DNA from: Anaerolineae bacterium
GTDB taxonomy: Bacteria; Chloroflexota; Anaerolineae; UBA4142
DNA: 43,285 nt
Direction of reading: 5' to 3'
NCBI GenBank assembly: GCA_027457205.1
Contig: DAIDTM010000108.1
Span: 1 to 43,285 of the forward strand
Part shown: piece after piece, positions 2,413 through 18,641 of the stretch
Numbering within the stretch: the first letter of the stretch is position 1
Layout of the letters: each line of letters begins with the position of its first letter
The notes under the pieces: generated by a model
Seen by the model: the letters and a program-made list of their open reading frames with translations, nothing else
Told to the model about the DNA's origin: nothing
Database searches by the model: none
Position numbers and translations under genes: made by a program

Positions 2413-2415
2413 AAT

Positions 2416-3297: not shown

Positions 3298-3307
3298 AAA
3301 ACGCGGC

Positions 3308-3382
3308 GTCATTGCGAGCGAAACAATTTCCGTGCTGATTTGGAGATTGCTTCGTCGCCGCTTCGCGGCTCCTCGCAATGAC
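3308..3382. repeat. REP/MITE-like intergenic palindromic element
   Basis: Perfect 11-bp terminal inverted repeat, GTCATTGCGAG (3308-3318) / CTCGCAATGAC (3372-3382), enclosing a second imperfect inverted pair (GCGAAACAATTTCC / GGAGATTGCTTCG). It gives the familiar spurious peptide ...VIARSREAATKQSP... on the minus strand. Confidence 0.5.
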
Positions 3383-3410
3383 ACTCGCACTTTCCTGAAA
3401 GCATCCGCCT

Positions 3411-4634
3411 TTGCAATCTCGATATCTGATTCTCTTGGCGATTGTTACGCTGCTGGCGCTGGGAACCGGCTGCTCCATCCTCGCGCCGGCGGCGACGCCG
3501 TTGCCAGTTTTTCCGACGGCGACCGCTCCGAGCGCCAGTCCCACCGCCGCAACAACAAACACGCTCGCGCCCGCGCCAACACCCGGCACGCCGACCGTGC
3601 CTCCACAGCCGCCTACGAGCGCGCCGGTCGCGCCGCCGTCCGCATCGAACGCGCAACCGCAGCGCATCAACTTTCCACCGGGCGGCACAGCGGCGACGCT
3701 GCAAGGTACGCTTGCGCCGAACGGCATCGCTCACTATGTCTTGCGCGCGCTGGCTGGGCAAACGATGACGGTGAACTTTGCCGCGTCCGCTGCGCCGGTG
3801 AATATGGCGATTCGCGGCGCGGACGGCACAGTCCTGGTTTCGAGCAGCGCGCTGGTGCCGTCCTGGAGCGGTCAACTGCCAGCGACACAGGACTATTACA
3901 TCGACGCGGTATCGTACGCGCCCGTCCCAGCGACATTCACGCTGCAAGTGGCGATCCTGCCGCTCGGCGCAACGCCAGTGATAGATCAACCGCGCCGCAT
4001 CACGTTTACGCCCGGCGCAACGAGCGTGACGATACAAGGCACGACCGCGACGCCGGGTGCGGATCGATTTGTGATCCGCGCGCTCGCCGGACAAACGATG
4101 GCGGCGAGCATTACCGCGCTGCAAGGTCCGGTGATTCTAATCATCTACGGCGCGGACGGCAACGTCCTAATCTCCGATCACGCCGGCACGAGCACCTGTA
4201 GCGGCGTGCTGCCGACAACCCAAGACTATTTCATCGATACGCGGTCGGTCGGCAACGCCGTTGTTCCGTTCACTTTGACGATCACGATCCCGCCGCTGGC
4301 GACGGTTCCGCCGGTGATACCCAAACACATCTTATTCCCGCCCGGCGGTACGTCGGTGACCGTGCAAGGCAGTCTGCCGGTGAATGGAATGGACCGCTGG
4401 ATGCTGCGCGCGCTCATCGGTCAAACGATGACGGTGAACACCGCGACAACGCAGGGGCAGGTGATCCTGATCATCTTCGGCGTGGAAGACGGCGACGTGC
4501 TGATCTCCGATCATGCCGGCGCGACGAGTTGGACCGGGCAGTTGCCGGCGACCGAGGATTATTACATCGATGTTCGATCCGTTGGGAACGTCGCGGCAAA
4601 CTATTCGCTACAAGTGACGATCCCGCCGCCATAA
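3411..4634 (+). CDS. Secreted/lipoprotein with a Pro/Thr/Ala-rich linker and three tandem ~100-aa repeat domains
   Basis: 407 aa with a TTG start. Signal peptide with a lipobox-like LALGTGC. Three repeats (nt 3663-3995, 3996-4325, 4326-4631) share R/HI.F.PGGTS.T.QG...RALAGQTM...G.DG.VLIS...W.G.LP.T.DY.ID...TL...IPP. Confidence 0.75.
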   Translation: MQSRYLILLAIVTLLALGTGCSILAPAATPLPVFPTATAPSASPTAATTNTLAPAPTPGTPTVPPQPPTSAPVAPPSASNAQPQRINFPPGGTAATLQGTLAPNGIAHYVLRALAGQTMTVNFAASAAPVNMAIRGADGTVLVSSSALVPSWSGQLPATQDYYIDAVSYAPVPATFTLQVAILPLGATPVIDQPRRITFTPGATSVTIQGTTATPGADRFVIRALAGQTMAASITALQGPVILIIYGADGNVLISDHAGTSTCSGVLPTTQDYFIDTRSVGNAVVPFTLTITIPPLATVPPVIPKHILFPPGGTSVTVQGSLPVNGMDRWMLRALIGQTMTVNTATTQGQVILIIFGVEDGDVLISDHAGATSWTGQLPATEDYYIDVRSVGNVAANYSLQVTIPPP

Positions 4635-4635
4635 T

Positions 4636-4705
4636 CTGACGGACGACGAAGGACGGAAGACGGATGCTATCGAGATTCCGTCAACGGTCATTCGTCCTCC
4701 GTCAG
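4636..4705. terminator. Long imperfect hairpin / REP-like element between the lipoprotein gene and lipA
   Basis: CTGACGGACGACGAAGGACGG... pairs with ...CCGTCAACGGTCATTCGTCCTCCGTCAG (8 perfect terminal bp, then interrupted pairing). It lies immediately after the TAA at 4632-4634. Confidence 0.4.
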
Positions 4706-4719
4706 TGTGAAAGATACAA

Positions 4720-5628
4720 ATGACTGAAAGCAATCTGATAACATCGGCGGTGACGCGTCCACGCCACCCGGACTGGATCCGCGTGCGCGCGCCGATTGGC
4801 GAAAAGTACGTGCACCTGAAAGGATTGGTGCGCGGGCTGCAACTGCACACCGTCTGCGAAGAAGCGCTGTGCCCGAACATCGGCGAGTGCTGGGGCGCGG
4901 GCACCGCGACGATTATGATCCTCGGAGATACGTGCACGCGCGCGTGCCGCTTTTGCGCGGTCAAGACCGGCAACCCGCGCGGCATCGTCGATACGGAAGA
5001 ACCGTACCGCGTCGCGGACGCAATCGCGGAATTGCAGTTGAACTATGTCGTCATCACGTCGGTGGACCGCGACGATTTGCCGGACGGCGGCGCGGGCATC
5101 TTCGCCGAGACGGTGCGGCAGATCAAGACGAAATCGCCGCGCACCAAAGTCGAAGTGCTCACCGGCGATTTTCGCGGCGACCGCGCGTGCGTGCAAACGG
5201 TCGTCGAAGCCAAGCCGGACGTGTTCGGACAGAACATCGAAACGGTGCGGCGGCTGACCCACGTCGTCCGCGACCGCCGCGCCGGGTACGAGCAGACGAT
5301 GAACGTGCTGCAGATGATCAAGGAGATCGATCCGACGCGGCGCACCAAATCGTCCATCCTGGTCGGCATCGGCGAGACGCCAGCGGAAGTGATCGAGACG
5401 ATGCGCGATCTACGCGCGGCGAACGTCGATCTCCTCGCCATCGGACAATATTTGCAGCCGACGCATCTCAAGCGGCACGTGCCGCTCGTCGAGTACGTGA
5501 CGCCGGAACAGTTCGCGCGCTACAAAGAAGAAGGCATGCAATTGGGCTTCCGCTACGTCGCAGCCGGACCGCTCGTCCGCAGCTCCTACAAGGCGTGGGA
5601 AGCGATGATGGTGTTAGCCGAAGCATAA
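4720..5628 (+). CDS. lipA: Lipoyl synthase
   Basis: 302 aa. Has both LipA cysteine clusters: [12 protein letters not shown] and the radical-SAM CTRACRFC. Also carries the C-terminal RSSY motif. Confidence 0.95.
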
Positions 5629-5638
5629 GAGTTTCATC

Positions 5639-6205
5639 GTGGATTACAGCGCACTCACCGACGAAGAAATCATAGCGCGATTGAAGAACGGCGAAAGCTG
5701 GGCGATGTCGGTCTTGTACGACCGCTACGCCCGGCTTGTTTTTTCGCTCGCGCTCAAAATCCTGAATGATCGCGGCGCGGCTGAAGAGACGGTGCAGGAA
5801 GTGTTCGTCAAAGTGTGGAAACGTTGCCGCGAGTACGACGCCCGGCGCGGCAAGTTTTCGTCATGGCTCACTGGCATCGCGCACAATCACGCCATCGACG
5901 AGCTGCGCCGGCGGCGCGTGCGCCCATCCGCTTCGGAAGGCGATGACGACGCGATGGATACGGTGTTGGACGAGGGACCCGCGCCGCTCGATCTAGCGGT
6001 GCAGAGTCTGGAACGCCGCCGCATCGTCGACGCGTTGAGGGGAATTCCGCAAGAGCAGCGCCGCGCGATCGAGATGGCGTACTTTGAAGGTCTGACGCAG
6101 CAGGAAATCTCGGATCGGCTTGGACAGCCGCTCGGCACGATCAAGACGCGAATGCGCCTGGGGATGCAAAAACTCAAGACGCTGCTGGAAGAGCCGGCGA
6201 CCTAA
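5639..6205 (+). CDS. ECF-type RNA polymerase sigma-70 family factor
   Basis: 188 aa with a GTG start. Region 2 (AEETVQEVFVKVW...WLTGIAHNHAIDELRRR) and region 4 (MAYFEGLTQQEISDRLGQPLGTIKTRMRLG) are recognisable. Confidence 0.9.
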   Translation: MDYSALTDEEIIARLKNGESWAMSVLYDRYARLVFSLALKILNDRGAAEETVQEVFVKVWKRCREYDARRGKFSSWLTGIAHNHAIDELRRRRVRPSASEGDDDAMDTVLDEGPAPLDLAVQSLERRRIVDALRGIPQEQRRAIEMAYFEGLTQQEISDRLGQPLGTIKTRMRLGMQKLKTLLEEPAT

Positions 6206-6309
6206 AAGCCACTCGACGTGATCGCCCGGCGCTGTCTCGATAAAATCGATGTATTAAACAAATCTAAATGTACGCCTTCTTCGTAGAATAGTTGGAAGGT
6301 GTTCTAGAA

Positions 6310-7086
6310 ATGTCGATTTGTGATGAACTACAGGAATTGTATCCGGCGTATGTGCTGGATGGCGTAGAGGATGCCGACCGCGCGCGTATCGAACAGCATT
6401 TGCCGCACTGCGCGAATTGCACGCGCATCGTCGCGGATTATCGTCCGATCGTCGATCTGCTGCCGTTCGCGGCGACGCCGGTGGAACCGCCGGCGGACTT
6501 GAAATATCGCGTTCTCGCGGCGACGATGCCAAAGGCGCGTCCCGCGCCGGCGTCGTTTGCCGCGCGCGTTTCCACCGGCTTTTCGAATTTCTTCCGCGCG
6601 CCGGCGTTCTCAGCCGTAGCGTTGCTGCTTATCGTCGCCCTTGGCATTTGGAATCTTTCGCTGCAAAACCAGATCACGCAGCAGGCAGCGTCGAATCAGC
6701 AGATGCTGACGGAATTGATGCGGCAGCGCGATTTTCTGATGACGATGTCGTACGCGAGCGGTCAGCCGCGGCAGTTGCAACCAACCCAGGTTGCGTCGCG
6801 CGCGGTCGGACGGCTGTACGGCTCGCCAGACGAGACGACGCTGGCGTTGATCGCGCTCGACCTACCGACGCTGCCCGCTGGTAAAGTTTATCAAGTGTGG
6901 CTCATCGATGCGAACGGCGACCGCACCAGCGGCGGTACGTTCAAGGTGGATGACCAGGGGCGCGGCTGGCTGCTGATCCGCGCGCCCAAGCCGCTCGGCA
7001 GTTATCAAGGGGTGGGCATTACTGAGGAGCCGGAAGGCGGCAGCCCTGCGCCTACTGGCGCAAAGATGCTGGGCACCAATCTGTGA
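6310..7086 (+). CDS. Anti-sigma factor (zf-HC2 N-terminus, one TM helix, RskA-type C-terminal domain)
   Basis: The ORF is open from TTG 6292, but ATG 6310 (MSICDELQ...) is the more likely start. Contains the H..HL..C..C zinc motif (HLPHCANCTR) and a TM helix (FSAVALLLIVALGIW). The C-terminus (KVYQVWLIDANGDRTSGGTF...GITEEPEGG) is typical of anti-sigma-K RskA domains. Confidence 0.85.
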   Translation: MSICDELQELYPAYVLDGVEDADRARIEQHLPHCANCTRIVADYRPIVDLLPFAATPVEPPADLKYRVLAATMPKARPAPASFAARVSTGFSNFFRAPAFSAVALLLIVALGIWNLSLQNQITQQAASNQQMLTELMRQRDFLMTMSYASGQPRQLQPTQVASRAVGRLYGSPDETTLALIALDLPTLPAGKVYQVWLIDANGDRTSGGTFKVDDQGRGWLLIRAPKPLGSYQGVGITEEPEGGSPAPTGAKMLGTNL

Positions 7087-7123
7087 TTGGGCTAATGGCA
7101 GGCAAAAGACGTACGCGCCAATG

Positions 7124-7166
7124 AAAAATATTCGCGGGAGAAACTACCTCTCCCGCGAATATTTTT
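7124..7166. terminator. Bidirectional intrinsic terminator between the anti-sigma gene and the island operon
   Basis: Perfect 18-bp stem, AAAAATATTCGCGGGAGA (7124-7141) / TCTCCCGCGAATATTTTT (7149-7166), with a 7-nt loop. An A-run precedes it and a T-run follows, so either strand reads hairpin plus U-tract. It lies 2 nt from the stop at 7169-7171. Confidence 0.7.
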
Positions 7167-7168
7167 GG

Positions 7169-8698
7169 TTATTTACCCACGCCCATCAAGATGCTGGAAG
7201 TTGGCTGCTTTAAATCTATCCGTACCGACGGACTGGGCGCACTTTCATTTTTGGCTACGTCGCTGAGCACATTTCGAAATACACGTGAAACCGGATGAGC
7301 CGAGGCGAAATTGAATGGACGAGTCCTCACTTTCGAGTTATTTAGGTGCATCATGAAAGATTCAAGCCTTAAATAGTCAGATGCCCTCAGCCATGGATAC
7401 TTTTGCTGATTGTACTCGAGGAATGGCAGCAATTTGCCATTCAGGTCTTGCAAATCCCAGCGTTCCCCATCTGGTGCCCTGGGAGAAAAGAGATAGTCCT
7501 CGTGTTGGCGAAAGAGAATCGAACCCGGGACCGGCGTAAATAGCATCGGAATGACCGATCCGACCTTCTGCGATGCATAGAGTGCAGTGTTGATTGTTAC
7601 CTGCAAATCCTCATCAGGTAGCCCAAAAATCACAAACGCATTCAAGTCTTGGCTACCGACTGCCCAGCCTGCCTTTTTCGCCACCTCAACTGCTCGCTCG
7701 AATGCTTCAATCGTGGCTTGTTTGCGATTCCAACCCCGTGCAATTTCATTGTCAATGGTCTCAAGCGCGAGGTGCAACTTACGAAAACCCGTTGCGCGCA
7801 TCTCGTTGAGAAACTCTAGATCAACGAGGCGCGGCTCAATGCCTTCGGGTGCGTAAATAGAAATCTTCAAGCCGCGCTTGCGAATTTCCGCAAGTCGCTC
7901 GAGAAAATCATCGCGGTTGAAAAGAAGATTGTCTTCATAGAACGCGAACTCGCGGACGCCGTATTTTTTGTATTTTTCTTCGATCTCGTCCGCAATCTCC
8001 TGAGGCGAACGACTCCTAACTTTTGGATTCTCGTGGTTTAGTTTAAGTTGTGCACAGTAGGCACAGTTAAAACGGCAACCACGGCTTCCGGTAATCAGAG
8101 CGTAGCGAGGTTTCGTTTCATAAAGATCGTCATTGTAGTAAAGCGACAGATCCGTCCTTGCGTTAGCCGCGTCGTCACAGATTTCACCGTCGACGACGTT
8201 TATGTCAATTCCTGCCCGTTCGCCCAGATGTCTGTTTGCGTGCTCGGGGTCAAGTGTTGGATAGATACCACCTACTAATATACGAGGAGTGTTTTGCGGG
8301 TAGACCCTCTTGACGACATCGATGACGTCACGCGTGCTCTCCCACCAGTACGTCATTATGGACGTGATCCAAATCTCTCCTGGGACGAATGACGTTTCTC
8401 TGAGACGTATTTCCAACTCGTCCAGAGACATCCCGAATGTCCAAAGCTGTTTGGCAATGTCGTCTCGTTGGACGACATCTCTGTGGCGCTGCCGCACACG
8501 GCGCTTACTATCAGTGGCGAGGCAATCAATCAGTCGCAGTTGCTCGTATCCATTCTTTCTCAGCCACGTTGCGACCTTGAGTAAGCCGTGTGGCTGACTC
8601 CAATAAGCCCAGTACTGTGTGTCGTAAATGGGCGGATTGATCAAGATTGCGCTTTTGGCACCATTCAGAACTTGAGATGGATTGTCACGTATAATCAC
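7169..8698 (-). CDS. Radical SAM enzyme with an N-terminal B12-binding-like (class-B-type) domain; intact CX3CX2C
   Basis: 509 aa. GSRGCRFNCAYC gives C208-x3-C212-x2-C215 (nt 8054-8077). The N-terminal ~150 aa has the Rossmann-like layout of class B radical SAM proteins (AILINPP...QPHGLL...GY..L.LIDCL; ITSIMTYWW). GTG 8698 is preceded by AAGGA. Last gene of the island operon. Confidence 0.85.
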   Translation of the reverse strand: MIIRDNPSQVLNGAKSAILINPPIYDTQYWAYWSQPHGLLKVATWLRKNGYEQLRLIDCLATDSKRRVRQRHRDVVQRDDIAKQLWTFGMSLDELEIRLRETSFVPGEIWITSIMTYWWESTRDVIDVVKRVYPQNTPRILVGGIYPTLDPEHANRHLGERAGIDINVVDGEICDDAANARTDLSLYYNDDLYETKPRYALITGSRGCRFNCAYCAQLKLNHENPKVRSRSPQEIADEIEEKYKKYGVREFAFYEDNLLFNRDDFLERLAEIRKRGLKISIYAPEGIEPRLVDLEFLNEMRATGFRKLHLALETIDNEIARGWNRKQATIEAFERAVEVAKKAGWAVGSQDLNAFVIFGLPDEDLQVTINTALYASQKVGSVIPMLFTPVPGSILFRQHEDYLFSPRAPDGERWDLQDLNGKLLPFLEYNQQKYPWLRASDYLRLESFMMHLNNSKVRTRPFNFASAHPVSRVFRNVLSDVAKNESAPSPSVRIDLKQPTSSILMGVGK

Positions 8699-8709
8699 GG
8701 GATTATTCC

Positions 8710-10041
8710 TTATCTAGTCGCGAGCGGAAGTGTTACCCTTAATTTAGGTTTCCACGTTTCGTTGGCAATGCTGTATCGCACCATCTGAGCAATTTGGTCG
8801 TCACCCAGGAAATCAAAGGTCGTGCTGCGATATTTGCTATTTAGGAGCGCAGCCAGTCGAGTCAGTTCTTGATAATCGGAGAAACTGGCACCATTAAACT
8901 TTGCAAACGGAAATAGTTTTCCGTTCTGTTTTTCCAACTCGGGAGGTAGATGTTTTTCGTATCTCTGATAGATGTCCGTGCCCGGAGTAGGTTGGAAAGG
9001 CACTAGATTCACAGATCCAACAATGTGTGCTAACCTCGTAAGGCGTTCCACTGTGTGGTCAAGATTCTCACTGGGATACCCAACTAGAACCATCGCCGTG
9101 ATGTCTTCCGTGCGCGGCTTATACCCACCGTGCGTCAACAAAAGTTCGATTCCGCGTTCGTAAGCACTCAAATCACCCTTTGCATCGGGGTCCAATGCAC
9201 GGTCATCATGCAGGAAAATTTGGCGATATCCTGCTTCTCTCATTTTGATGACTAGGTTCTGCGTTAATGCTTTGGGAGAAAGGTTGCCCAACGCGCGCAG
9301 TTTTATGTCGAGTCCCTTTTGAATAATTAGGTCAAGCACACCCTCGAAGTGTTTTGGATTCTTGCCGGGAATCTCGTCGTCAAAAAAAGCAAATTCCCGC
9401 ACGCCCAACGCGATCTTGGCTTCGATTTCCTTTACGATTTGATTGGCAGAGCGCGACCGGTTGAGTAGAACGCCCGAGAAGTGTGGCATCCTTTCGTACA
9501 AAGAAAGATCGGTCGCTTCTGTTTTTGCTTTCTTTCCAATTGTAGAGTCAAGTCGAACTCCGCGTAATTGCTGTCTAGCGTGGTTTGGGCACAGAGAAGC
9601 ATACACGCCGCCTAAGATGATCCGCGCCTTTGGAAATCGCTTCCGAACAAGTCTAACTAAATCCCGCGTGCTTTCCCACCAAAACGTCATCATACAGGTT
9701 ACGTAAATAACATCCGGCTTCCATTTTTCTTCTTTGAGGTCTTCAATCTTATCTTCGATCTGCTCCCATGACCAGCCAAAATGCCAGCGTGCAAGTTCAT
9801 GGTTTTCAACAGAGACCGAATCCAGTTTTTTTCGCTGAACGCGCTTGCCTTGTAATGGCTGTAAACAATCAAACAGCCGCACACCATAACCGCGTTCAAG
9901 TAGTAGGCTTCCAACTTGGAGTAATCCAAGTGGTTGATGCCAACGTGCCCAGTCGAGGCGAATGTCATAAACCGGTGGAGAGACGAGCAAGATTCGCTGT
10001 TGTTGGGTGTGCTGCTTTTTCAAAGATTTGCGTTTCATCAT
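8710..10041 (-). CDS. Radical-SAM-like paralog of 7169..8698 lacking the CX3CX2C cluster (probable pseudoenzyme partner)
   Basis: 443 aa. It aligns by eye to the downstream protein along its whole length: PP[IV]YD, QP.GLL, MT[YF]WWESTRD, ILGG[IV]Y, TDLSLY, GVREFAF, GSV...F.P.PG, NGKL.PF. The segment that should hold the Cys triad is deleted (...HFSGVLLNRSRSANQIVKEIE...). Only three Cys occur (C59, C116, C151), none clustered. The ATG overlaps the upstream stop (ATGA at 10038-10041). Confidence 0.8.
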   Translation of the reverse strand: MMKRKSLKKQHTQQQRILLVSPPVYDIRLDWARWHQPLGLLQVGSLLLERGYGVRLFDCLQPLQGKRVQRKKLDSVSVENHELARWHFGWSWEQIEDKIEDLKEEKWKPDVIYVTCMMTFWWESTRDLVRLVRKRFPKARIILGGVYASLCPNHARQQLRGVRLDSTIGKKAKTEATDLSLYERMPHFSGVLLNRSRSANQIVKEIEAKIALGVREFAFFDDEIPGKNPKHFEGVLDLIIQKGLDIKLRALGNLSPKALTQNLVIKMREAGYRQIFLHDDRALDPDAKGDLSAYERGIELLLTHGGYKPRTEDITAMVLVGYPSENLDHTVERLTRLAHIVGSVNLVPFQPTPGTDIYQRYEKHLPPELEKQNGKLFPFAKFNGASFSDYQELTRLAALLNSKYRSTTFDFLGDDQIAQMVRYSIANETWKPKLRVTLPLATR

Positions 10042-10994
10042 TTGGACTGTATGCCCAGTTGACGAAGCACATCTAGTCCATCTTGCTTGCGACAGCCGGG
10101 GTGTTGGAAAGATGCAAGAACGAACTTCCCGCTATGAACTTCGACTAACGGCATTTCAACAACCTGCCCGAGTTGCTGTTTGCTAAATGCGGGCAAAGTT
10201 GTTCCTTGGGGAGTTAGAGTGAATACAAAATGAAGTAAGTGCTCTTTCCAGCCTTCATAGTACACGGGTGGATAACAATAGCAGTCGAAGGAATTTATAT
10301 GAGCGATTTGGCGGATGAACAAAGGCACAGTCGCCTTAGTGCGGTAGTGTTCGGTGCTATCTATTGCCTTTCTCTCCGAGTACCATTTCAAAATACGCTG
10401 ATGTTTTCTCGAATAGGTTTCATTACCTATCCCGGTAAGGTAGCGGGAGAGTTCTGTGCCCAATGTATGCCGAACATTCAGCGTTAGTAGCAAAAGAAAG
10501 GGATGCGCCCTTTGCAGTTCTATCAAACGTTTTAGTGCCTGAATGCGCTTTGCTTCGCCCTTACTTTTATATCCCAAGCCGCCTTGGAAATCCCAATTGT
10601 GCAAATCGTACGTCATTCTTGGATTTTTGGTGCCTTCGGTTGCCAACAAGGCCGGAGCATTACCATCTATATCGACCCCATCCAGAATAATGTTTTCCAA
10701 GAAACCTCTTCGCAATTGCCAGTTCTCACTGAACCCATCCAATATCACATTTGTCTCGAGAGCATTGACTTTCCTAAGTTGCTCTTCAACTACTTTACCC
10801 CTCTTTGTTACAACTTCAATGCCTGTCTTGAATCCCAGATACTTTCCCCAATCGTGAAAATCACGAATGTCAGGACCCGGCAAACCGAAGTAATCTAGCG
10901 GTTTCTTTATACTACGACTGAACTTGGCAATTATGGGTTTGTCCCATCTACGCCGGATTGCCTCTTTATTCTGAGTTGAAGCAAGAGGGAGCAT
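10038..10994 (-). CDS. Hypothetical protein, island-specific; possible degenerate Rossmann/methyltransferase-like fold
   Basis: 318 aa. The ATG at 10994 directly abuts the upstream TAA (TAAATG). The stop overlaps the next start. I recognise no family. Motifs DYFGLPGPD (aa 34-42) and YDLHNWDFQGG (aa 129-139) loosely recall MTase motif I and the D.DPFG-type motif IV. Confidence 0.65.
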   Translation of the reverse strand: MLPLASTQNKEAIRRRWDKPIIAKFSRSIKKPLDYFGLPGPDIRDFHDWGKYLGFKTGIEVVTKRGKVVEEQLRKVNALETNVILDGFSENWQLRRGFLENIILDGVDIDGNAPALLATEGTKNPRMTYDLHNWDFQGGLGYKSKGEAKRIQALKRLIELQRAHPFLLLLTLNVRHTLGTELSRYLTGIGNETYSRKHQRILKWYSERKAIDSTEHYRTKATVPLFIRQIAHINSFDCYCYPPVYYEGWKEHLLHFVFTLTPQGTTLPAFSKQQLGQVVEMPLVEVHSGKFVLASFQHPGCRKQDGLDVLRQLGIQSK

Positions 10995-12683
10995 TTATTT
11001 CGCCTCCCCCAGGTCGCCTAATCGTGCAGCAATATCTTCCAATAAACGCTCATAGAGATCTGTATTAATACCTATATTGTCAGCTAGGGCGTCACTAATC
11101 GCAGAAATGATTTGCACATCCTCTTCCCGCATGCGCCAACCGCTATGAGTAATCACTTGTAGTAAGTTCAATATTGGAAGCTGTTTTGGTGCACCGCTCT
11201 CTGCGCTAGGTATCGGAATTGGAAGACCAACGTCCGTTGCCGCCTTTGCACCTTTTCGCTTTCGAACGGAAACAGGAGTTTGGTCGTCGATTTCCTTTTT
11301 CACCTGTTTCTGCAGATTCTTGGCGGTTGTTATTAAGCGAGTAGCCAAGGTTCTCTTGTCGCCGCTCGCTTTACCCTTTTGGCTCTGCAAATCACTCAAA
11401 ATGTCATCAAGTGCTGAGTATGCTTGGAACTCGTCGTAGGAACCCTCTGTGACTTTCTCTTTGACTTCCTTTATCCTATCAGGAGCATTTTGGATTATCT
11501 GGTCGGCTCGACGTGAGGCTTGTGCTTCCAGCGCAATTTTCTGAAGACTTTCTTTGTTCTGTGCTCCACTCAGGGTATATTTCACTGCCGCTTCTAAAGC
11601 ATCCTTCGCGGGGCTGGCCTCAAAATCATCTCTGGCACTGGTTGGGATTACTTCTGTGCTGATCACATAAACTTCTCCAGTCCACCATGGATAAATCTGT
11701 TTTCTAGTAAAATACGAACTGAGGTAGTTCCTATCCCCAATGGTGAAACCTTTGATTTTGTAGACCAACCCAGCAAACTCTGGAAATCCCCGAGACGACA
11801 AGGACTCGCTCTTACTTGTTAGACAAGCCCAATAGTATGCCATCGGTTTCCCGTTGGAATCATAGACGAATCCAATTCTCGGTGATTCTAGGTCCGGGAT
11901 ATTTGGTTTTTCAACTGTAACAGATTTGCTTCGTTCAATCTTAAGAATTATCTTGGCCGACTTGTATCCCTCAACATTCTTCTGAAGTGCTTTTTCAATC
12001 TCCTTGCCGTACTGAAACTCGGAACTAAATCTAACCGGTAGATTTCGTAGAATATAACCGCGCATCTCGTCAAGGTTTGATAGTCGGGCTATGTGTGTGT
12101 CGCTTAAGTTTTCCAGCTGTATCATTGTGAATGCCATTCCCTTACGTGTACTCTTGGCGAAGTGGTAAGCGATATGCCTATGAAGAAGCGTCGCCAGAGG
12201 AATGACTGGACGATTGGGGTCCTGTCGAGCGGCATCAAGTTTGTGCCGCATCTCACCGAATTCGAATTCAAGAATATGCTCCATCTCTTCCCCAGCGGTC
12301 TTGGTACGAATCACCAGGCGGTTACATAGATCAAATCCAGAATATATTCCGATGCCCCTAAATCCAACGTTTGACATGATGTCTTTTTGGGAAATAGCAA
12401 ACTCACGAGCTTGAAGAAGCTTGTTGTAATCCATTCCGTCGCCATAATCGAGTATGAATACAGAATTTCCCGTGACTTGAATTTCGACTGTCTCGGCATT
12501 CGCGTCTATCGAGTTTTGAGCATATTCTCTAATCGCATCCAAAGGATCTGTGTATAAACCTTTTGAAAGTATGTTTAATAACTCGCCTCCAATTTGACTT
12601 TCTGCAAGAGGGGGGTTGAAAGATTGCCCCTCTCTCAGATCTTTGGGAAATTGGCTTGTTGGTATTGTATCTAGTTTCGGCAT
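10995..12683 (-). CDS. GHKL-superfamily ATPase, Hsp90/MORC-like (HATPase_c_3-type) with a long helical, Lys-rich C-terminal region
   Basis: 562 aa. Has an N-box LYTDPLDAIREYAQNSIDA (compare Hsp90 LYSNKEIFLRELISN.SDA), DYGDGMD (DxGxG), and the G-box GFRGIGIYSGF (compare Hsp90 GQFGVGFYSAF). AAGGAG lies 6 nt before the ATG at 12683. Confidence 0.85.
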   Translation of the reverse strand: MPKLDTIPTSQFPKDLREGQSFNPPLAESQIGGELLNILSKGLYTDPLDAIREYAQNSIDANAETVEIQVTGNSVFILDYGDGMDYNKLLQAREFAISQKDIMSNVGFRGIGIYSGFDLCNRLVIRTKTAGEEMEHILEFEFGEMRHKLDAARQDPNRPVIPLATLLHRHIAYHFAKSTRKGMAFTMIQLENLSDTHIARLSNLDEMRGYILRNLPVRFSSEFQYGKEIEKALQKNVEGYKSAKIILKIERSKSVTVEKPNIPDLESPRIGFVYDSNGKPMAYYWACLTSKSESLSSRGFPEFAGLVYKIKGFTIGDRNYLSSYFTRKQIYPWWTGEVYVISTEVIPTSARDDFEASPAKDALEAAVKYTLSGAQNKESLQKIALEAQASRRADQIIQNAPDRIKEVKEKVTEGSYDEFQAYSALDDILSDLQSQKGKASGDKRTLATRLITTAKNLQKQVKKEIDDQTPVSVRKRKGAKAATDVGLPIPIPSAESGAPKQLPILNLLQVITHSGWRMREEDVQIISAISDALADNIGINTDLYERLLEDIAARLGDLGEAK

Positions 12684-12717
12684 TATAGACTCCTTGTCTT
12701 CACGGTTTTCAGATGAG

Positions 12718-13836
12718 TCATCTCAGGCAGTTACAGTTCGCATTGCACAAGTTCAAAGATCGCCGAATACTGTGGCTCTCCTTGCACAATGAGAACGCTA
12801 CCCTGTTGCCCCACAACGCACGTACTTGACGATGAATTGTGGAATAAACATTGGCGCGTACGGAATCAGGAATATGCCAATGGCTACCATCTTTTTCCAT
12901 ATTGTCAGGTTGCCATCCCATTGGAGGCAAGCCCCAACGCTCTGCACACGCCAGCAATTGGTTGTTTTTTTCGCGGTACGTTCCAACTGTAATATACTCA
13001 GGACGATGTCCGTCTTTATGCGCTTGGGCAAAGAATTCTGAGTATATATCCTCCCAGCCATCGGGTGTTAGAATAGGATCGATTCGCCAACGATAGTGAT
13101 AGCCCCATGATTGCACCTTTAGTCCAGCTTCTAGCCGCTTGCTGATTGGCGGAGTGATGCCTTCCCACAAATCCGCGATAGATTGGGGATTCAGCGAAAA
13201 CGAAACTACTACTCGGTCATTGTGCGGCAGGTCTTTCAGTTGGTCAACGTTCGCACTCTTGGTGAGGAGGATTAGTTTACAGCATTTAGGATTTGTACTT
13301 GTCTCACCAAACATTGGAATCACCCATTGGCTTATGTTCGTGTAACGGTCGTAGAGAAGACTATCAGAGCAATCGATACCCAGCCCGAGTGTTTCAGTCG
13401 AGCGGCGTTTTGAATCCAGTAGCCATGCTTGAATGTCGCGCTTCATTGTATTGTAGTTGGTATAAATCAGATGGCGGCGCGGATCGCGACGAATGCGATG
13501 CGTCAGCATCAAGAAACAACTACGGCATTGTAATCCACACGCGCCGCTACCAATAGCGACATCGTACCATATCGGAGGACAAAATGAGGTGAGGTGATCT
13601 TCAGTCGACATTCGCCAGGGTTTGATGAATGAAGAACGTCGTTCTGTTTCCAAAATACTTACTGGTGCGTCAAGCCCTGTGATCTCGGGAGGTAATGTAA
13701 CTTGGCGCCATTCGCCCATCGCAACTTGTTGATCAACCCACCAACTGACTGGTTTTTCTCGATGAGAAGTATGAGCGTCGCCGGTAACCAGAAGAAAGGG
13801 GTTTGCATCCTTGGTTCGCCTCAGGTCAATCGTCAC
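12718..13836 (-). CDS. Radical SAM protein of the spore-photoproduct-lyase (SplB/COG1533-like) family
   Basis: ACGLQCRSC is a CX3CX2C triad (nt 13516-13539). KLILLTKSANVDQL...VVVSFSLNPQSIADLWEGITPPISKRLEAGLKVQSWGYHYRWRIDPI matches the SPL-family core pattern I recall (LLTKS...SLNP...E..tp....RL.A......GY......PI). The ORF is open to TTG 13860. GTG 13836 has a perfect SD (GGGAGG, 5-nt spacer), so I call that start. The C-terminus has a Cys cluster, CNANCNC. Confidence 0.8.
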   Translation of the reverse strand: MTIDLRRTKDANPFLLVTGDAHTSHREKPVSWWVDQQVAMGEWRQVTLPPEITGLDAPVSILETERRSSFIKPWRMSTEDHLTSFCPPIWYDVAIGSGACGLQCRSCFLMLTHRIRRDPRRHLIYTNYNTMKRDIQAWLLDSKRRSTETLGLGIDCSDSLLYDRYTNISQWVIPMFGETSTNPKCCKLILLTKSANVDQLKDLPHNDRVVVSFSLNPQSIADLWEGITPPISKRLEAGLKVQSWGYHYRWRIDPILTPDGWEDIYSEFFAQAHKDGHRPEYITVGTYREKNNQLLACAERWGLPPMGWQPDNMEKDGSHWHIPDSVRANVYSTIHRQVRALWGNRVAFSLCKESHSIRRSLNLCNANCNCLR

Positions 13837-13898
13837 ATAAGCCTCCCTTGCTAGCTTCAAGGGGATGCATCAAGAGGAACGGTTGTTCGATGACCAGC

Positions 13899-13927
13899 AT
13901 TATAGCATATCGGGCGCGCGGCGTCAA
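13899..13927 (-). promoter_or_regulatory. Near-consensus sigma70 promoter of the island operon
   Basis: Read on the minus strand: TTGACG (13927-13922), 17-nt spacer, TGcTATAAT with the extended -10 (TATAAT = 13904-13899). It lies about 60 nt upstream of the GTG at 13836. Confidence 0.55.
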
Positions 13928-14018
13928 CGCGAAAACGAATATTACAGGAAGCGTGATTCTACGATGCAAAACGGAGCGCCGCGTTACCACAGCACTCCGT
14001 TGAATTCGCGCGATGGCT

Positions 14019-14771
14019 CTATCGCGATGCGCCCGGCGTCGTGGCGACCTTTGACGCCGCTTTGGGCTTGGGAAGCATAAAACGCGAGAGGAAGAGCGCC
14101 AGCTCAAAGAGGATGAGCATCGGCACCATCACCACCATCGGCGCGACAATGGGATCGGACACCGGCGTGATGAGCTCGGCAAAGACGAAGAGCACGAAAT
14201 ACGCGATGCGGCGCTGCTTGCGGAGAAAGTCGGGCGTGACCAGACCGAGTTTCATCAGGATCAGCATGAGGATCGGCAATTCAAACGCGAGACCCACGGC
14301 GATCATGAAATAGACGACGAACGAGATGTACTGGTCTGCCCCCGGCAAATACGTGAGCGAGCTGCCGAACATCGCGCGCATGACGGTCACCATATTTGCC
14401 AGCATCAGGTAGCCAAACAAGTTTCCCAGCAAGAACAGAAACACCATGCCGGCGACGCCGGGAATGACGTACCTCTTTTCGCTACGCGTCAAGCCGGGCT
14501 CGAGGTATCGCACTGTTTGGTAAAGCCACACCGGCGCGGCAAGCGTCACTCCGCCGTATAGCGCGATGCGAAAGTGAATCAGAAAGCCATCCATCAGACC
14601 GTGCGTGACGAGTTTGAGATCGCCGGCGGGACGGGTTAGAATCTCCAAAATCGCATCGGAGAAAACGTACGAGAGCGCGGTGGTTACGAGGATGGCGATA
14701 ATCGATATAATCAGACGGCTGCGGAGTTCTTCGATATGTTCCAGAACTCCCATCCGCTTTTCTTCTGTCAT
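14019..14771 (-). CDS. tatC: Twin-arginine translocase subunit TatC
   Basis: 250 aa. Contains VLEHIEELRSRLI, and the six-TM layout typical of TatC runs through the sequence. Confidence 0.95.
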   Translation of the reverse strand: MTEEKRMGVLEHIEELRSRLIISIIAILVTTALSYVFSDAILEILTRPAGDLKLVTHGLMDGFLIHFRIALYGGVTLAAPVWLYQTVRYLEPGLTRSEKRYVIPGVAGMVFLFLLGNLFGYLMLANMVTVMRAMFGSSLTYLPGADQYISFVVYFMIAVGLAFELPILMLILMKLGLVTPDFLRKQRRIAYFVLFVFAELITPVSDPIVAPMVVMVPMLILFELALFLSRFMLPKPKAASKVATTPGASR

Positions 14772-14871
14772 ATTGCCGAATCGTCCTTACATCACGTCGA
14801 GTAGGTCAAACAGAAAGAGATGCCAGAGCGGCATCCCCTCCCGTTTCCAATCGCAAAACGATCGACCTGTG

Positions 14872-15153
14872 TTACTGCGCCGCGCCGCACTCGGGGCAGA
14901 ATTTCATACCAGCGTTAATGAACTTGTTGCAGCTCTTGCACGCGACCTGGGCGACCGGCTCTTCCTTCCTCACTTCCACCGGTTTCTGGACTTCGTCAGT
15001 AAAACCTTGCGTTGCTTCCCTAGTGGCGGATTGGAATTCTTTGAGCGTCTTTCCGACCGCGCGCCCGATCTCCGGCAAGCGCGAGGGACCAAAAATGATC
15101 AGCGCGGCCACAGCAATGATGACCAAATGAGTGGGCTGTAAACCGAACGGCAT
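14872..15153 (-). CDS. tatA: Twin-arginine translocase TatA/E-family protein fused to a C-terminal zinc-ribbon
   Basis: 93 aa from ATG 15153, with AAAGGAG 8 nt upstream; the ORF track extends to 15210. [41 protein letters not shown] is the canonical TatA TM plus amphipathic helix. The C-terminus [19 protein letters not shown] is a CxxC...CxxC ribbon. Confidence 0.85.
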
Positions 15154-15210
15154 TTCAAACACTCCTTTCAACTCGAACGCGTCTACGGCGACGCGCAACC
15201 TTCCATCCAA

Positions 15211-15239
15211 ATTGTATCACATAATGCGTCGCCGCGCAA
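15211..15239 (-). promoter_or_regulatory. Putative tatA promoter
   Basis: Minus strand: TTGCGC (15239-15234), 17 nt, TGaTACAAT with the extended -10 (TACAAT = 15216-15211). About 58 nt upstream of ATG 15153. Confidence 0.4.
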
Positions 15240-15372
15240 ATTCTGACGGCGAACATCTTGCGCTAGTCGAATCTCTCGTGTTATACTGCGAATATCCTCG
15301 GCTCGTCCATTGGACGGTGTCAGCGTTTGTTTTGATCCGTGCTTATTCGTATCGTATCAAAGGGGGGCGGGT

Positions 15373-15942
15373 ATGCAAGAATTGAAAGAGCGCATCCAGA
15401 AAGAAGGACGCAATCTCGGCGGCGGCATCCTGAAGGTCGATTCGTTTCTGAATCATCAGATCGATCCTGGCTTGATGACGCGGCTAGGCGCAGAACTGGC
15501 GCGGCGATTAGCGTATACGCGCCCAACCAAAGTGCTGACGGCGGAGACGAGCGGGATCGCGCCCGCGCTCGCGACCGCCGCGGCGCTGGGCATCCCGGTC
15601 GTCTTTGCGCGCAAAAGCCCGCCGCTGACGATGGACTATACCATCGTGAAAGAAACCTGCCGCTCGCGCACGCACGATAAGATGGTCGAATTGATGGTAT
15701 CGACCGAGTACCTGACGCCGCATGACCGCGTACTTATCATTGACGATTTCCTCGCGACCGCGCAGACGATCACCGCGCTGGCGCGGCTCGTCGCCAAAGT
15801 CAATGCGACCCTCGTCGGCGTTGGTACGGTCGTGGAGAAGGAATTTGAGTACGGCCGCGTGAATGCCAAGGACTTGAACGTGCCGATCGAAAGTCTCGCG
15901 GTGATTACGAGTATGGACGACGGCAAGATCGTGATTGAATAA
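15373..15942 (+). CDS. xpt: Xanthine phosphoribosyltransferase
   Basis: 189 aa from ATG 15373; the ORF track starts earlier at 15310. MQELKERIQKEG...LKVDSFLNHQIDP...VLIIDDFLATAQT is the Xpt N-terminus plus the PRPP-binding loop. Confidence 0.9.
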   Translation: MQELKERIQKEGRNLGGGILKVDSFLNHQIDPGLMTRLGAELARRLAYTRPTKVLTAETSGIAPALATAAALGIPVVFARKSPPLTMDYTIVKETCRSRTHDKMVELMVSTEYLTPHDRVLIIDDFLATAQTITALARLVAKVNATLVGVGTVVEKEFEYGRVNAKDLNVPIESLAVITSMDDGKIVIE

Positions 15943-16019
15943 CTTCACCTCTCACCTTCTCTGCCCCTCTCCGGTCAAGACGATAGGAGAGGGAGTTGCA
16001 GAGTGGATGAGGAGACTAG

Positions 16020-17564
16020 ATGCCGGACACAATCGTCATCCTCGATTTCGGATCGCAGTATACGCAATTGATCGCGCGGCGCGTGCGCGAGCAGCGCGTC
16101 TATTCCGAAATCCTGCCGCACGACGCGCCGCGCGCAGAAATCGAACGATTAAAGCCGCGTGGCATCATCTTGTCCGGCGGTCCTTCCAGCGTCTACGACG
16201 ACGGCGCGCCCGCGCTCTCGGATTTTCTGCTCGACCTCGACGTGCCGCTGCTCGGCATCTGCTACGGAATGCAGTTGCTCGCGCATCGGCTCGGCGGACG
16301 CGTCGAAAAATCATCGACGCGCGAGTACGGTCACGCGACCGTTCATATCGATTACGCCGCGTCTCTATTTTCCAATCTTCCTTCTCCAATCTCCGTTTGG
16401 ATGAGCCACGGCGATCAAATTACGGCGCTGCCGCGTGATTTCGTCGCGCTGGCGCACAGCGACACTTGTCCCTTTGCCGCCATGGCGAACCCGACGCGCC
16501 AAATCTACGCGCTGCAATTTCATCCCGAAGTCGCGCACACGCCGCAAGGCATCGACATTTTACGGCATTTTCTGTTCGACGTATGCGGCTGCGCGGCCGA
16601 TTGGACGCCGGCGGCGTTCATCAGCAGCACGCTCGACGAGATTCGCACACGCGTCGGCGAGGCGCGCGTTTTGTGCGCGCTCAGCGGCGGCGTCGATTCA
16701 ACGGTCGTAGCGACGCTCGTTGGGCGCGCGATTGGCGAGCGGCTTGTCTGTGTCTTTGTCGATCACGGCTTGCTGCGGGACGGCGAAGCGCGCGCGGTGG
16801 TCAACTTGTTTCAGAATCGACTGGGGCTGGAGATTGTCGCGGTGGACGCGCAGGCGCGGTTCATCGACAAGTTGCAAGGCGTGATCGATCCGGAAGAAAA
16901 GCGCAAGATCATCGGCGCGGAATTCATCCGGGTATTTGAAGAAACCGCGCACTCCATCGCGAGCGCGGCGCCGTTCCGTTTCCTCGCACAGGGAACGTTG
17001 TACCCTGATGTGATCGAATCACGCGGCGTCGGCAAAGCGGCGGCGCGCATCAAGACACACCACAACGTCGGCGGACTGCCGGAGGATTTGCAATTTGAGT
17101 TGATCGAGCCGCTGCGCTGGCTGTTCAAGGACGAAGTGCGCGCGGTGGGATTGGAGCTGGGACTGCCGGAGGAATCGGTTTATCGTCAGCCGTTCCCCGG
17201 ACCCGGATTGGCAGTACGCATTCTGGGCGAAGTGACGCGCGAACGACTGGCGATCCTGCGCGCGGCAGACGCCATTGTCCGCGAGGAGATCGAGCGCGGC
17301 GGTTTAGCGCGCGAAGTCTGGCAGTACTTTGCGATCCTGACGCCGCTTAAAACAGTCGGCGTGATGGGCGACGAGCGGACGTACGAGCACGTCGTCGCGG
17401 TACGCGCGGTGGCGAGCGCGGACGGAATGACGGCGGACTGGGCGCGCCTGCCGCACGATTTGCTCGCGCGCATCGGCAGCCGCATTGTTAATAAAGTGCA
17501 CGGCGTCAATCGCGTCGTCTACGACATCACGAGTAAACCGCCAGGAACGATCGAATGGGAATGA
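16020..17564 (+). CDS. guaA: GMP synthase (glutamine-hydrolysing)
   Basis: 514 aa. GATase domain ([11 protein letters not shown]), the ATP-PPase SGGVDS motif, and the C-terminal ...KPPGTIEWE. Confidence 0.97.
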
Positions 17565-17618
17565 GAAATCGCTGCCGCCCCATGATCGAAAAAAACCGGC
17601 AGACAAAGAATAACGCGT

Positions 17619-17646
17619 TTGCATCGCGCGGCGATTCGCATATAAT
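17619..17646 (+). promoter_or_regulatory. Putative promoter, copy 1 of a duplicated promoter module
   Basis: TTGCAT (17619-17624), 16 nt, TATAAT (17641-17646). AGGAG lies 7 nt before ATG 17712. The module GTTTGCATCGCGCGGCG.TT.G..TATAATA recurs at 18700-18730. Confidence 0.5.
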
Positions 17647-17711
17647 AACCGTCGAACCGCAAGGGAGCAGGGGATTCTCCTCTGTTCCTTTCCATTTTCA
17701 GGAGCGAAACT

Positions 17712-18641
17712 ATGCCTCCGATACTTCATCGGCTGACCGAAAATATCACGACCATTGATTTGCAGTTTCAAGGGCGGACCGAGGTCATCGCGTCGTACCT
17801 TTTTTATGATGGCAACGAAGCCGCGCTAATCGAGACCGGTCCCGCAGTAACGGTGGACAATCTGCTAGAAGGCGCGCAAGCCGCCGGCGTGCCGCTCGAA
17901 GCGCTGCGCCACTTGATCGTCACTCACATTCACCTCGATCATTCCGGCGCGGCGGGCATACTCGTCCGACAGCTGCCCTGGGCGCGCGTCTATGTGCATC
18001 CCAACGGCGCGCCGCATCTTGCCGATCCAGCAAAACTACTCGCGAGCGCGACACGGCTCTACGGCGACAAACTCGAATGGCTGTGGGGCATTCCGCTGCC
18101 CGTGCCCGCCGGAAATCTGGTGGTTGTCAACGATCAAGAAGAACTGCGCGTCGCGGGAACGACACTGCGCGCATTCGATACGCCCGGTCACGCCAAACAT
18201 CATCACGCTTATCTGGATACGCGCAGCGATCTTTTGTTTACCGGCGATGTCGGGGGCGTGCGGATGCCGAGCGTGCGTTACGTTCGCCCGCCCACGCCGC
18301 CGCCCGAACTCGACATTGAAGCGTGGGTGGCGAGCATCGCCAAGTTACGCGCGGTAAAGGCGACGGGGTTGTGTCCGACACATTTCGGATTATTCCGCGG
18401 CAATCTCGATTGGCACTGGAACGATCTGGAGCATCGCCTTGTCGCGTGGGGCGAGATCGTTCGCGCCGAGATCGCTCGTGGCGCGAACGACGACGCGGTG
18501 CTTGAACAAATGAAAACGCATATCGCAACGGAGATGCAAGCGCAAAACGTTGACGCAACCGCGTACGATGTGGCGGTGAGTTACGAGTCCATCGTCGCGG
18601 GATACATTCGGTACTGGAAGAAGAAAACGGAAACCGCATAA
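17712..18641 (+). CDS. MBL-fold metallo-hydrolase
   Basis: 309 aa. Contains [12 protein letters not shown] (the HxHxDH motif), and later the TPGHAKHH and D..H ligands. Confidence 0.85.

Follow-up and report, generated by a model that had tools for sequence, protein, structure and literature searches.

A mobile genomic island with two radical SAM modules, a GHKL ATPase and a predicted methyltransferase-fold protein: a candidate nucleic acid modification system of the defence type

The contig DAIDTM010000108.1 of an Anaerolineae bacterium (Chloroflexota, UBA4142; assembly GCA_027457205.1), whose 43,285 nucleotides are called the window below, carries an AT-rich island of five genes that encode a radical S-adenosylmethionine (SAM) protein related to spore photoproduct lyase (SPL), a GHKL ATPase, a protein with a predicted class-I SAM-dependent methyltransferase fold (MTL), and two class-B-like radical SAM paralogs, a live one and a "dead" one devoid of its Fe-S motif. 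We find that these genes belong to a conserved and modular system with relatives in three phyla, and that in the window they form a horizontally acquired, self-contained and mobile operon. The reading that we favour, to which we give an even chance, is that of a conserved multi-protein system of the conflict or defence type which performs a SAM-driven covalent modification of DNA, or less likely of RNA. Gene content, folds, motifs, modular co-conservation, co-evolution, the mobility of the island and its defence and mobile-element neighbourhoods are what was observed here, starting from a sequence-only reading of the window that had proposed a new nucleic acid modification or defence system.

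Conservation and modular organization of the system

Context look-ups and collection scans yielded 69 loci (numbered L001 and so on), 63 of them with MTL, in 46 non-redundant groups; most come from metagenomic contigs, and the pattern-based scanning captures the family incompletely. For 33 groups, more than 1 kb of sequence is available upstream of MTL, and in 30 of these MTL is immediately preceded by the GHKL gene, so the two form an almost obligate pair. The small radical SAM protein is of the DUF5131 type, with a CX7CX2C cluster motif, in 29 of the 46 groups and SPL-like in three (the window, L005-7 and L026), and the two types never occur together. The sequence-only reading had named co-conservation of the gene set as support for its proposal, and this is what we found: the same five genes stand in the same order in two further lineages, L005-7 and L026, with DUF5131 replacing the SPL-like protein in the 29 groups. 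Neither type of small radical SAM gene is present within ∼9 kb on either side in L053 or within ∼1.5 kb downstream in L036. In L072/73, the SPL-like gene is directly followed by a divergent GHKL gene, and the length of the 4881-bp contig of P0230/P0068 suggests the same adjacency.

The second module exists in two subtypes: subtype I, the dead/live pair, was found in 22 groups, and subtype II, composed of another live radical SAM protein (CIRKC[HS]FC, no Pfam match) and a second GHKL protein, in 10. At least four different gene orders exist, a variety that speaks for selection on co-occurrence. Pairwise-identity correlations, which are not phylogenetically corrected, reach 0.91 for GHKL-MTL and 0.94 for live-dead, against 0.3 to 0.7 for the other pairs, and this pattern of sequence divergence points to two tightly interacting pairs that would be combined more loosely with each other. 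The true core of the system is GHKL plus MTL and not the five-gene set as such. The distribution is patchy, which the sequence-only reading had likewise named as support, and spans Chloroflexota (Anaerolineales, Chloroflexia, Thermomicrobia and "Candidatus Ribeiella"), Gemmatimonadota (Gemmatimonadetes, Longimicrobium) and Alphaproteobacteria (Sphingosinicella, Caulobacteraceae).

Several loci deserve separate mention. A contiguous subtype II operon at L017:6166-14094 (+) comprises the GHKL, MTL, DUF5131, DndB-like, distinct radical SAM and second, divergent GHKL genes; L008, L002, L054, L057/58, L019 and L053 are likewise of subtype II, with the dead/live pair replaced, and DndB-like genes are present in L008, L017 and L019. 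Loci with the order dead-live-gap-GHKL-MTL-DUF5131 encode in the gap a conserved protein of ∼130 residues (L041:6658-7050, +), and equivalent open reading frames between the live and GHKL genes are found in L001, L013, L015, L018, L035, L036, L037, L039 and L047. Its N-terminus carries a KOW motif (23.3 bits in one member, where the cut-off is 22.3), and its C-terminal part gives sub-threshold matches to the BrnA antitoxin (ribbon-helix-helix-like). The protein probably acts as a dedicated regulator, and nothing comparable is encoded in the window. A second GHKL-MTL pair, 23 to 26% identical, lies in opposite orientation beside the main system at L029:242-2900 (-) and L037:10766-13285 (-), and GHKL-MTL pairs may thus form a broader family with paralogous specificities. 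At L016:5624-9903, in "Candidatus Ribeiella danica," the GHKL and live radical SAM genes are each split into three open reading frames and look pseudogenized. Finally, the live gene has an in-frame stop after codon 159 in the Logan assembly SRR9320192, from the window's own population (L011:5622-7163), which reflects either a genuine inactivating variant or a mistake in the assembly.

MTL and its GHKL partner

The 318-residue protein that we call MTL had been regarded as an orphan by the sequence-only reading, which proved incorrect. MTL has 66 close homologs and is rare, given its 465 cluster representatives among 1.84 billion. Its AlphaFold2 model (pLDDT 91, pTM 0.91) gave 59 PDB matches at E ≤ 1e-3 in a structure search, the best being the tRNA methyltransferase Trm1 (3axs, E 6e-6). 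Without exception, the 50 PDB matches listed have the class-I fold and depend on SAM, and almost all are methyltransferases; those at the top include Trm1, the putative TrmK Sp1610, the rRNA methyltransferase TFB1M and many small-molecule methyltransferases. The viral matches are generic methyltransferases, including DNA adenine and mRNA cap types. The conserved motifs of MTL are YFGLPG after β1 (33-37), an invariant E60 at the end of β2, and N133-x-D135-F-x-x-G139 after β4, and the latter (NxDFxGG) resembles the DxDPFG motif of Trm1. Based on the model, we predict that MTL has the Rossmann-like seven-strand fold of class-I SAM-dependent methyltransferases, and it may bind SAM and be catalytic.

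At the sequence level, MTL scores 26.8 bits against NF047698 (the PP_RS20740 family), for a cut-off of 200. All 34 aligned MTL relatives match this model weakly (best E 6.9e-11), more distant relatives score at most 58 bits, and precomputed PF28273 matches on MTL homologs are graded "weak" or "faint." These profile scores place MTL as a distant relative of the PP_RS20740 family (NF047698/PF28273) rather than as a member; the sole paper on PP_RS20740 that we found deals with a mutation for furfural tolerance and assigns no function. We also considered whether MTL is TcmP, and rejected this at the sequence level: none of 34 MTL proteins matched TIGR04474 at E ≤ 1, and hhalign comparisons of MTL profiles with 1, 2 and 6 TcmP sequences returned E values of 0.3 to 0.5.

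The GHKL protein retains all Bergerat motifs, with invariant residues E53, N57 and D60, D79-G81-G83, and G107-G112. Its AlphaFold2 model (pLDDT 86) matches Hsp90, TRAP1, SMCHD1 and MORC3 in Foldseek with E values of 1e-13 to 1e-12 over 390 to 510 columns, and the closest matches by sequence are MutL N-terminal domains. In the model, the ATPase domain is followed by a transducer-like domain in the middle and by ∼200 helical residues at the C-terminus; no nuclease domain was recognized in the protein, these C-terminal 200 residues included. In its N-terminal part, the protein also matches NF050001 and two PADLOC models, REase_II and TmtA, but weakly and far below the family cut-offs. On the strength of the Bergerat motifs and the transducer-like domain, the protein can be predicted to be an ATPase of the Hsp90/MutL/MORC type, in agreement with the N-box, DxGxG and G-box that the sequence-only reading had noticed; that reading was equally right in describing an SPL-family radical SAM protein with an intact CX3CX2C motif and a pair of radical SAM paralogs of which one lacks it.

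The radical SAM proteins

The CX3CX2C motif of the SPL-like protein, CGLQCRSC, provides a triad (C100, C104 and C107) that is invariant in 125 homologs. Since the protein exceeds the PF20903 cut-off and falls short of that of TIGR04070 (72.2 bits, cut-off 400), it belongs to the SPL superfamily and is not an SPL equivalog; its score for TIGR03886 is 26.4, for a cut-off of 437.6. In the PDB it matches the SPL structure 4k9r (E 1.7e-10). SPL catalysis depends on an H-donor cysteine and on a radical relay through Tyr96 and Tyr98. When the window protein is aligned to SPL chains of the PDB, the equivalents of these two tyrosines are S and F, and the catalytic cysteine aligns with C156, a position occupied by C in 21 and by R in 104 of the 125 homologs. 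Arginine is also found there in the in-system proteins of L005 and L026, and cysteine only in the subclade of the window.

The SPL-like family is large (>584 matches), and in lineages that do not form spores, stand-alone members lie beside housekeeping genes, for example serS (L020-L025, e.g., L020:8001-9062); the JGI annotation of this stand-alone family (COG1533) is "DNA repair photolyase." In-system copies stem from two subclades, each with close stand-alone relatives, and the simplest reading is that the SPL-like gene repeatedly displaced DUF5131 in one functional slot. Profile-profile comparison gave no signal of homology between the SPL-like and DUF5131 proteins; the sole links between the two are their mutually exclusive presence and the grouping of RadicalSAM.org (PMC9477430), in which the DUF5131 and SPL subgroups are neighbours within Megacluster-5. 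The premise of the sequence-only reading that SPL-family enzymes act on DNA would apply here by extrapolation from SPL itself and from the phage M6 protein gp53. On the P0191 contig (JGI 3300042731), an SPL-like gene 66 to 70% identical to that of the window is preceded by one for a 531-residue protein with a weak match to EAD7, an effector-associated domain; the contig stops 200 nt past the SPL-like gene, and this neighbour represents another flavour of conflict system.

The live class-B-like paralog has its CX3CX2C motif at C208, C212 and C215, kept in 23 of 23 distinct orthologs, whereas the cysteine triad is present in none of 19 distinct orthologs of the dead paralog, which is therefore a conserved pseudoenzyme and not a decaying gene. 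The two proteins are 31% identical over their full length (E 2e-64), with a gap across CX3CX2C in the dead paralog, an alignment that indicates loss of the Fe-S motif by deletion. The live paralog has no PF02310 match; its N-terminus is homologous to that of the dead paralog, for which the B12-binding match makes cobalamin binding a putative property. Its residues 35-374 align with positions 21-364 of the BchE model TIGR02026, with 72.9 bits for a cut-off of 481. NCBIfam searches with the class-B-like proteins gave BchE, P-methyltransferases, the ladderane-lipid radical SAM family and HpnJ as best matches, and in a profile search against PDB sequences the live protein found only weak generic matches, namely, AprD4, BioB and HydE.

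The operon lies on a mobile island

An empty site proves that the island is an indel. Through the TatC protein of the same 90% cluster, we found contig JBBIKB010000131.1 of the sibling genome GCA_037445675.1 (L074), in which tatA-tatC is directly convergent with an rskA-type anti-sigma gene and no island lies between them. In blastn, the reverse complement of L074 aligns from 1 to 2028 with window positions 5141-7166 at 98.0% identity, and from 2041 to 6021 with positions 14020-18000 at 98.7%. Between these two blocks L074 has only 12 nt, located between the tatC stop codon and the host terminator; the island replaces them and therefore extends over 7167-14019 (6,853 bp). The insertion occurred exactly between the stop codon and the hairpin of the terminator, and the tatC stop codon, TAA in the empty site, is TAG with the island. 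A block at 7100-13930 had been delimited by the sequence-only reading; the island is real and its housekeeping neighbours, rskA-type anti-sigma gene and tatC, are as described, and the limits are those given by the empty site. A second, shorter contig (DAIDTU010000024.1 of GCA_027457065.1) carries the same genes, and within this population the operon is found in SRR9320192 and SRR9320187.

The difference in composition, previously counted by hand, was borne out by computation. GC content is 0.473 in the island and 0.603 in the rest of the window, and 500-nt windows range from 0.44 to 0.51 over 7001-14000 and from ∼0.53 to 0.67 outside. GC content at third codon positions is 0.43 to 0.53 in the five island genes and 0.725 ± 0.05 in 24 flanking open reading frames, without overlap (Mann-Whitney p = 1.7e-5); overall, it is 0.475 in the island and 0.725 in the flanks. 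No direct repeats or target-site duplication were found at the island's ends, and no integrase or transposase within it. A search of the window for tRNA and Rfam elements found none.

All five genes lie on the minus strand with the tight spacing noticed earlier, which is, in order, 34 nt, direct abutment, a 4-nt ATGA overlap and 11 nt. The true start of the SPL-like gene is a GTG at 13836, preceded by a GGGAGG Shine-Dalgarno sequence, which yields the 372-residue protein of the NCBI call. The sequence-only reading had credited the operon with a private promoter and a perfect 18-bp hairpin terminator. The promoter, the best of six sites in the region and located ∼55 nt upstream of the GTG start, is island-borne, and the operon thus has its own. 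The hairpin is real but not private to the operon, because it lies outside the island and the empty site of L074 has it too, with one base different; it is a pre-existing bidirectional host terminator between the convergent tatC and rskA genes, which probably terminates the operon as well. The positions of these features are collected in Table 1.

Table 1. Positions of the island, its genes and its signals in the window
Feature	Position	Strand	Listed open reading frame (ORF list)	Evidence
Inserted genomic island, 6,853 bp	7167..14019			blastn vs L074, GC shift
SPL-like radical SAM protein, 372 aa	12718..13836	-	12718-13860	PF20903, 58.1 bits (cut-off 27)
GHKL ATPase	10995..12683	-	10995-12683	HATPase_c_3 (PF13589), 47.6 bits
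MTL, predicted class-I SAM-methyltransferase-fold protein, 318 aa	10038..10994	-	10038-10994	AlphaFold2 model and structure search
Dead class-B-like radical SAM paralog	8710..10041	-	8710-10041	B12-binding PF02310, 33.9 bits (cut-off 32.1)
Live class-B-like radical SAM protein	7169..8698	-	7169-8698	PF04055 (Radical_SAM), 80.6 bits
Sigma-70-type promoter, TTGACG-17 nt-TATAAT, extended -10 TG	13899..13927	-		11/12 positions matched
Perfect 18-bp hairpin	7124..7166			Inverted-repeat search and terminator scan

Neighbourhoods and catalogue searches

The genes found next to the system at other loci belong to defence systems and mobile elements and not to biosynthetic pathways, a qualitative result that agrees with the sequence-only reading. 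They include BREX genes (brxL, PglX-like), a gene for an Eco57I-like type IIG restriction-modification (R-M) enzyme, REase-ARP, an integrase, DndB-like genes with a recombinase, transposases with a resolvase, and AbiEii, PD-T4-6 and MADS genes. Among 111 flanking open reading frames of 20 loci, searched with Pfam and PADLOC, no further recurrent family emerged, only scattered defence genes, and no transporter, precursor peptide, carrier protein or other biosynthetic gene was seen at any locus examined. A fusion of a DUF6094 methyltransferase and an SNF2/superfamily II (SFII) helicase lies convergent with the system and directly after it in two loci with different gene orders, L003:14718-18602 (-; 1,294 aa) and L005:15687-19043 (-; 1,118 aa), and other loci are without it; this fusion echoes the MORC-SFII helicase theme of R-M systems.

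The gene combination had not been recognized by the sequence-only reading as viperin, Dnd/Ssp, Dpd, BREX/DISARM, Mza or another named system, and our searches, which confirmed the domains, gave it no name either. PADLOC-DB v2.0.0 made no system call on the window proteins; its marginal matches (E 1e-4 to 5e-3) were to LeoA, TmtA, REase_II and PDC-M51A, and the SPL-like protein, MTL and the dead paralog had none. NCBIfam assigned no equivalog or specific name to any of the five proteins, PHROGs gave nothing informative, and full-text literature searches found no description of a radical SAM/GHKL/MTL system. MTL is absent from the IMG/VR (viral) and PLSDB (plasmid) collections, and GHKL had one weak match in phage genomes.

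Proposed function and alternatives

Our working hypothesis is that the GHKL protein dimerizes on ATP like Hsp90, MORC or MutL and would serve as a nucleic acid clamp or conformational engine in an obligate pair with MTL, a Trm1-like Rossmann-fold SAM binder that would recognize a base and possibly N-methylate or otherwise derivatize it. The small radical SAM protein, SPL-like here and DUF5131 in most relatives, would carry out a radical step directly on the polymer, as do SPL and M6 gp53, and the class-B-like heterodimer of a catalytic subunit and its Fe-S-less paralog would add or rearrange a carbon substituent, with the latter as a scaffold or substrate binder. Radical chemistry on a base or sugar could in this way generate a complex mark, or possibly reverse one, and the mark could serve in self-marking or in defence against invading DNA. 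Of the sequence-only proposal of a modification or defence system, the part that concerns a system is supported by co-conservation, distribution, neighbours, composition and the absence of a system call; as for function, we infer that the substrate is DNA, what the chemistry would be and that the role lies in self-marking or defence. In favour of a nucleic acid substrate, we count the tRNA, rRNA, DNA adenine and mRNA cap methyltransferases among the structural matches of MTL, the match of the SPL-like protein to solved SPL structures, the editing of a DNA base by M6 gp53, the Hsp90/SMCHD1/MORC fold of the GHKL protein, the part that prokaryotic MORC proteins play in restriction-modification systems, and the DndB-like proteins of subtype II operons.

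Several observations weigh against a DNA-modifying defence system. The fold match of MTL is modest (TM ∼0.4) and does not separate methyltransferases that act on DNA, on RNA or on small molecules; the SPL-like relatives inspected (48 to 60% identity) are mostly stand-alone, in housekeeping contexts; and the nearest named families of the class-B-like proteins, all far below cut-offs, are enzymes of cofactors, lipids and natural products. The defence neighbourhood is a qualitative description. Absence from the phage and plasmid collections is neutral for defence and removes one support for a DNA anti-restriction role. Above all, there is no nuclease or obvious effector, so that a restriction arm is missing; for a classical restriction model, this is the greatest gap. 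A more specific version of the DNA hypothesis would dispense with the nuclease altogether: a cellular system writing a radical-SAM, carbon-linked hypermodification onto its own DNA for self/non-self discrimination or phage exclusion, in which the SPL/DUF5131-type enzyme and the cobalamin-type heterodimer would perform the chemistry, delivered by the Hsp90/MORC-like clamp and the Trm1-like reader or writer. We advance it tentatively and consider it rather doubtful in this specific form.

RNA as the substrate would mean that a complex tRNA or rRNA modification is installed or removed, for instance, against RNA-targeting phage or competitor toxins or antibiotics. The best structural match of MTL, the tRNA m2,2G26 methyltransferase Trm1, and the likeness of NxDFxGG to DxDPFG speak for it, as does the fact that many radical SAM methylases act on RNA (RlmN, Cfr, MiaB and TYW1). 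We nevertheless regard it as unlikely in view of the DndB-like proteins in subtype II operons, the R-M and BREX neighbours, and the precedents of SPL and M6 gp53, which are DNA enzymes; conflict-system GHKL+S5 ATPases of this fold class are likewise linked to DNA (PMC2292703). A small-molecule pathway leading to a cofactor, a lipid, a natural product or a viperin-like modified nucleotide, with GHKL as a chaperone or scaffold, appears improbable to us. BchE, P-methyltransferases, the ladderane-lipid enzyme and HpnJ as best class-B-like matches, the lack of a nuclease, and viperin, a radical SAM enzyme that makes antiviral nucleotides, would fit such a pathway, but these matches are 5- to 10-fold below the family cut-offs, the loci have neither transporter, precursor peptide, carrier or biosynthetic gene nor a recurrent flank family, and the partners are MutL/Hsp90/MORC-like and DndB-like.

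The system might also be a mobile cassette for DNA repair or damage reversal, with an SPL-like or DUF5131 lyase that would reverse a radical or alkyl lesion with the help of a MutL-like GHKL protein, or a toxin/immunity pair in which DNA would be damaged by one radical SAM module and restored by the other. SPL is a repair enzyme, the stand-alone family carries the photolyase annotation, the closest sequence matches of GHKL are to MutL, and the type C loci encode the regulator with KOW and BrnA-antitoxin-like parts. This explanation has a slim chance in our view, because it accounts neither for the strict pairing with MTL and the second radical SAM module nor for the rarity and the patchy distribution on islands, and because S and F replace the radical-relay tyrosines of SPL. 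That unrelated genes simply came together on a foreign fragment, as the stand-alone relatives of the SPL-like gene might suggest, is hardly credible: a combination of four to six genes recurs in dozens of loci of three phyla and in several gene orders, its genes are translationally coupled, and the two pairs co-evolve tightly, so that recurrence and co-evolution effectively refute a fortuitous cluster.

A conserved cellular system of two radical SAM modules, a GHKL ATPase and MTL would widen the known chemistry of DNA and RNA marks and of prokaryotic immunity, SPL and M6 gp53 being the only radical SAM enzymes with a direct action on DNA that we came across in this work. It provides a testable context for DUF5131/Gp37-Gp68, PP_RS20740-like proteins, the stand-alone COG1533 "SplB" family and the conserved Fe-S-less pseudoenzyme, and the hypermodification version, if true, would offer the first functional handle on the DUF5131 (Gp37/Gp68), TcmP and PP_RS20740 families. 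A natural experiment is at hand, since the siblings GCA_027457065.1, with the island, and GCA_037445675.1, without it, are directly comparable.

Comparison with known systems

The closest known modules, themselves uncharacterized, are the two-gene TcmP/DUF5131 modules (PF07505, the phage Gp37/Gp68 family). In most relatives of the window system, DUF5131 lies directly next to MTL and is 54 to 58% identical to plasmid DUF5131 proteins paired with TcmP, and the plasmid examples adjoin Abi genes and DNA methyltransferases. TcmP has no Pfam match (L070:7723-8556 and L071:7753-8634); by eye, it shows the methyltransferase-like motifs Y[IV]D[AG]F[AS]G (as in YIDAFAG) and FLDP[YE]G (as in FLDPYG), the latter similar to DxDPFG of Trm1. 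This usual partner of DUF5131 may therefore also have a Rossmann methyltransferase fold, and DUF5131 may have a Rossmann-type partner in both modules. The differences are that none of the five window proteins matches PF07505, the SPL-like protein taking this slot, that TcmP/DUF5131 pairs have neither GHKL ATPase nor class-B-like module, and that MTL is not TcmP by its sequence.

SPL and phage M6 gp53, an SPL-like isomerase in thymidine hypermodification, are the two radical SAM enzymes that PMC8989533 names as acting directly on DNA bases. The window protein shares with them the SPL family and the intact CX3CX2C motif, but it lacks the context of M6, with no 5-hydroxymethyluracil kinase or amino-acid transferase. 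Dnd and Dpd resemble our system as multi-enzyme DNA modification islands, and DndB-like proteins (PF14072) occur inside subtype II operons; however, no DndA/C/D/E, DpdA or QueC-type gene is present, and the window is without a DndB-like gene. Prokaryotic viperins are likewise radical SAM proteins in antiviral defence, yet no viperin model was matched, the window system is multi-component with GHKL and MTL, and its class-B-like and SPL-like proteins are unrelated to the viperin subgroup.

MORC/paraMORC proteins, GHKL-fused restriction enzymes (BbrUII/HgiDII) and Tiamat share with the window protein a GHKL domain followed by a transducer domain and a C-terminal extension. The window system differs by having no nuclease domain or gene and by its radical SAM partners, which are unmentioned in PMC2292703. 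According to Iyer, Abhiman, and Aravind (2008, PMC2292703), prokaryotic MORC/paraMORC proteins work together with methylases and SFII helicases in R-M systems; like the system described here, they are mobile, sporadic and linked to methylase-type genes, a likeness that extends to the SFII fusion beside L003 and L005. These R-M systems are the closest conceptual frame for the island.

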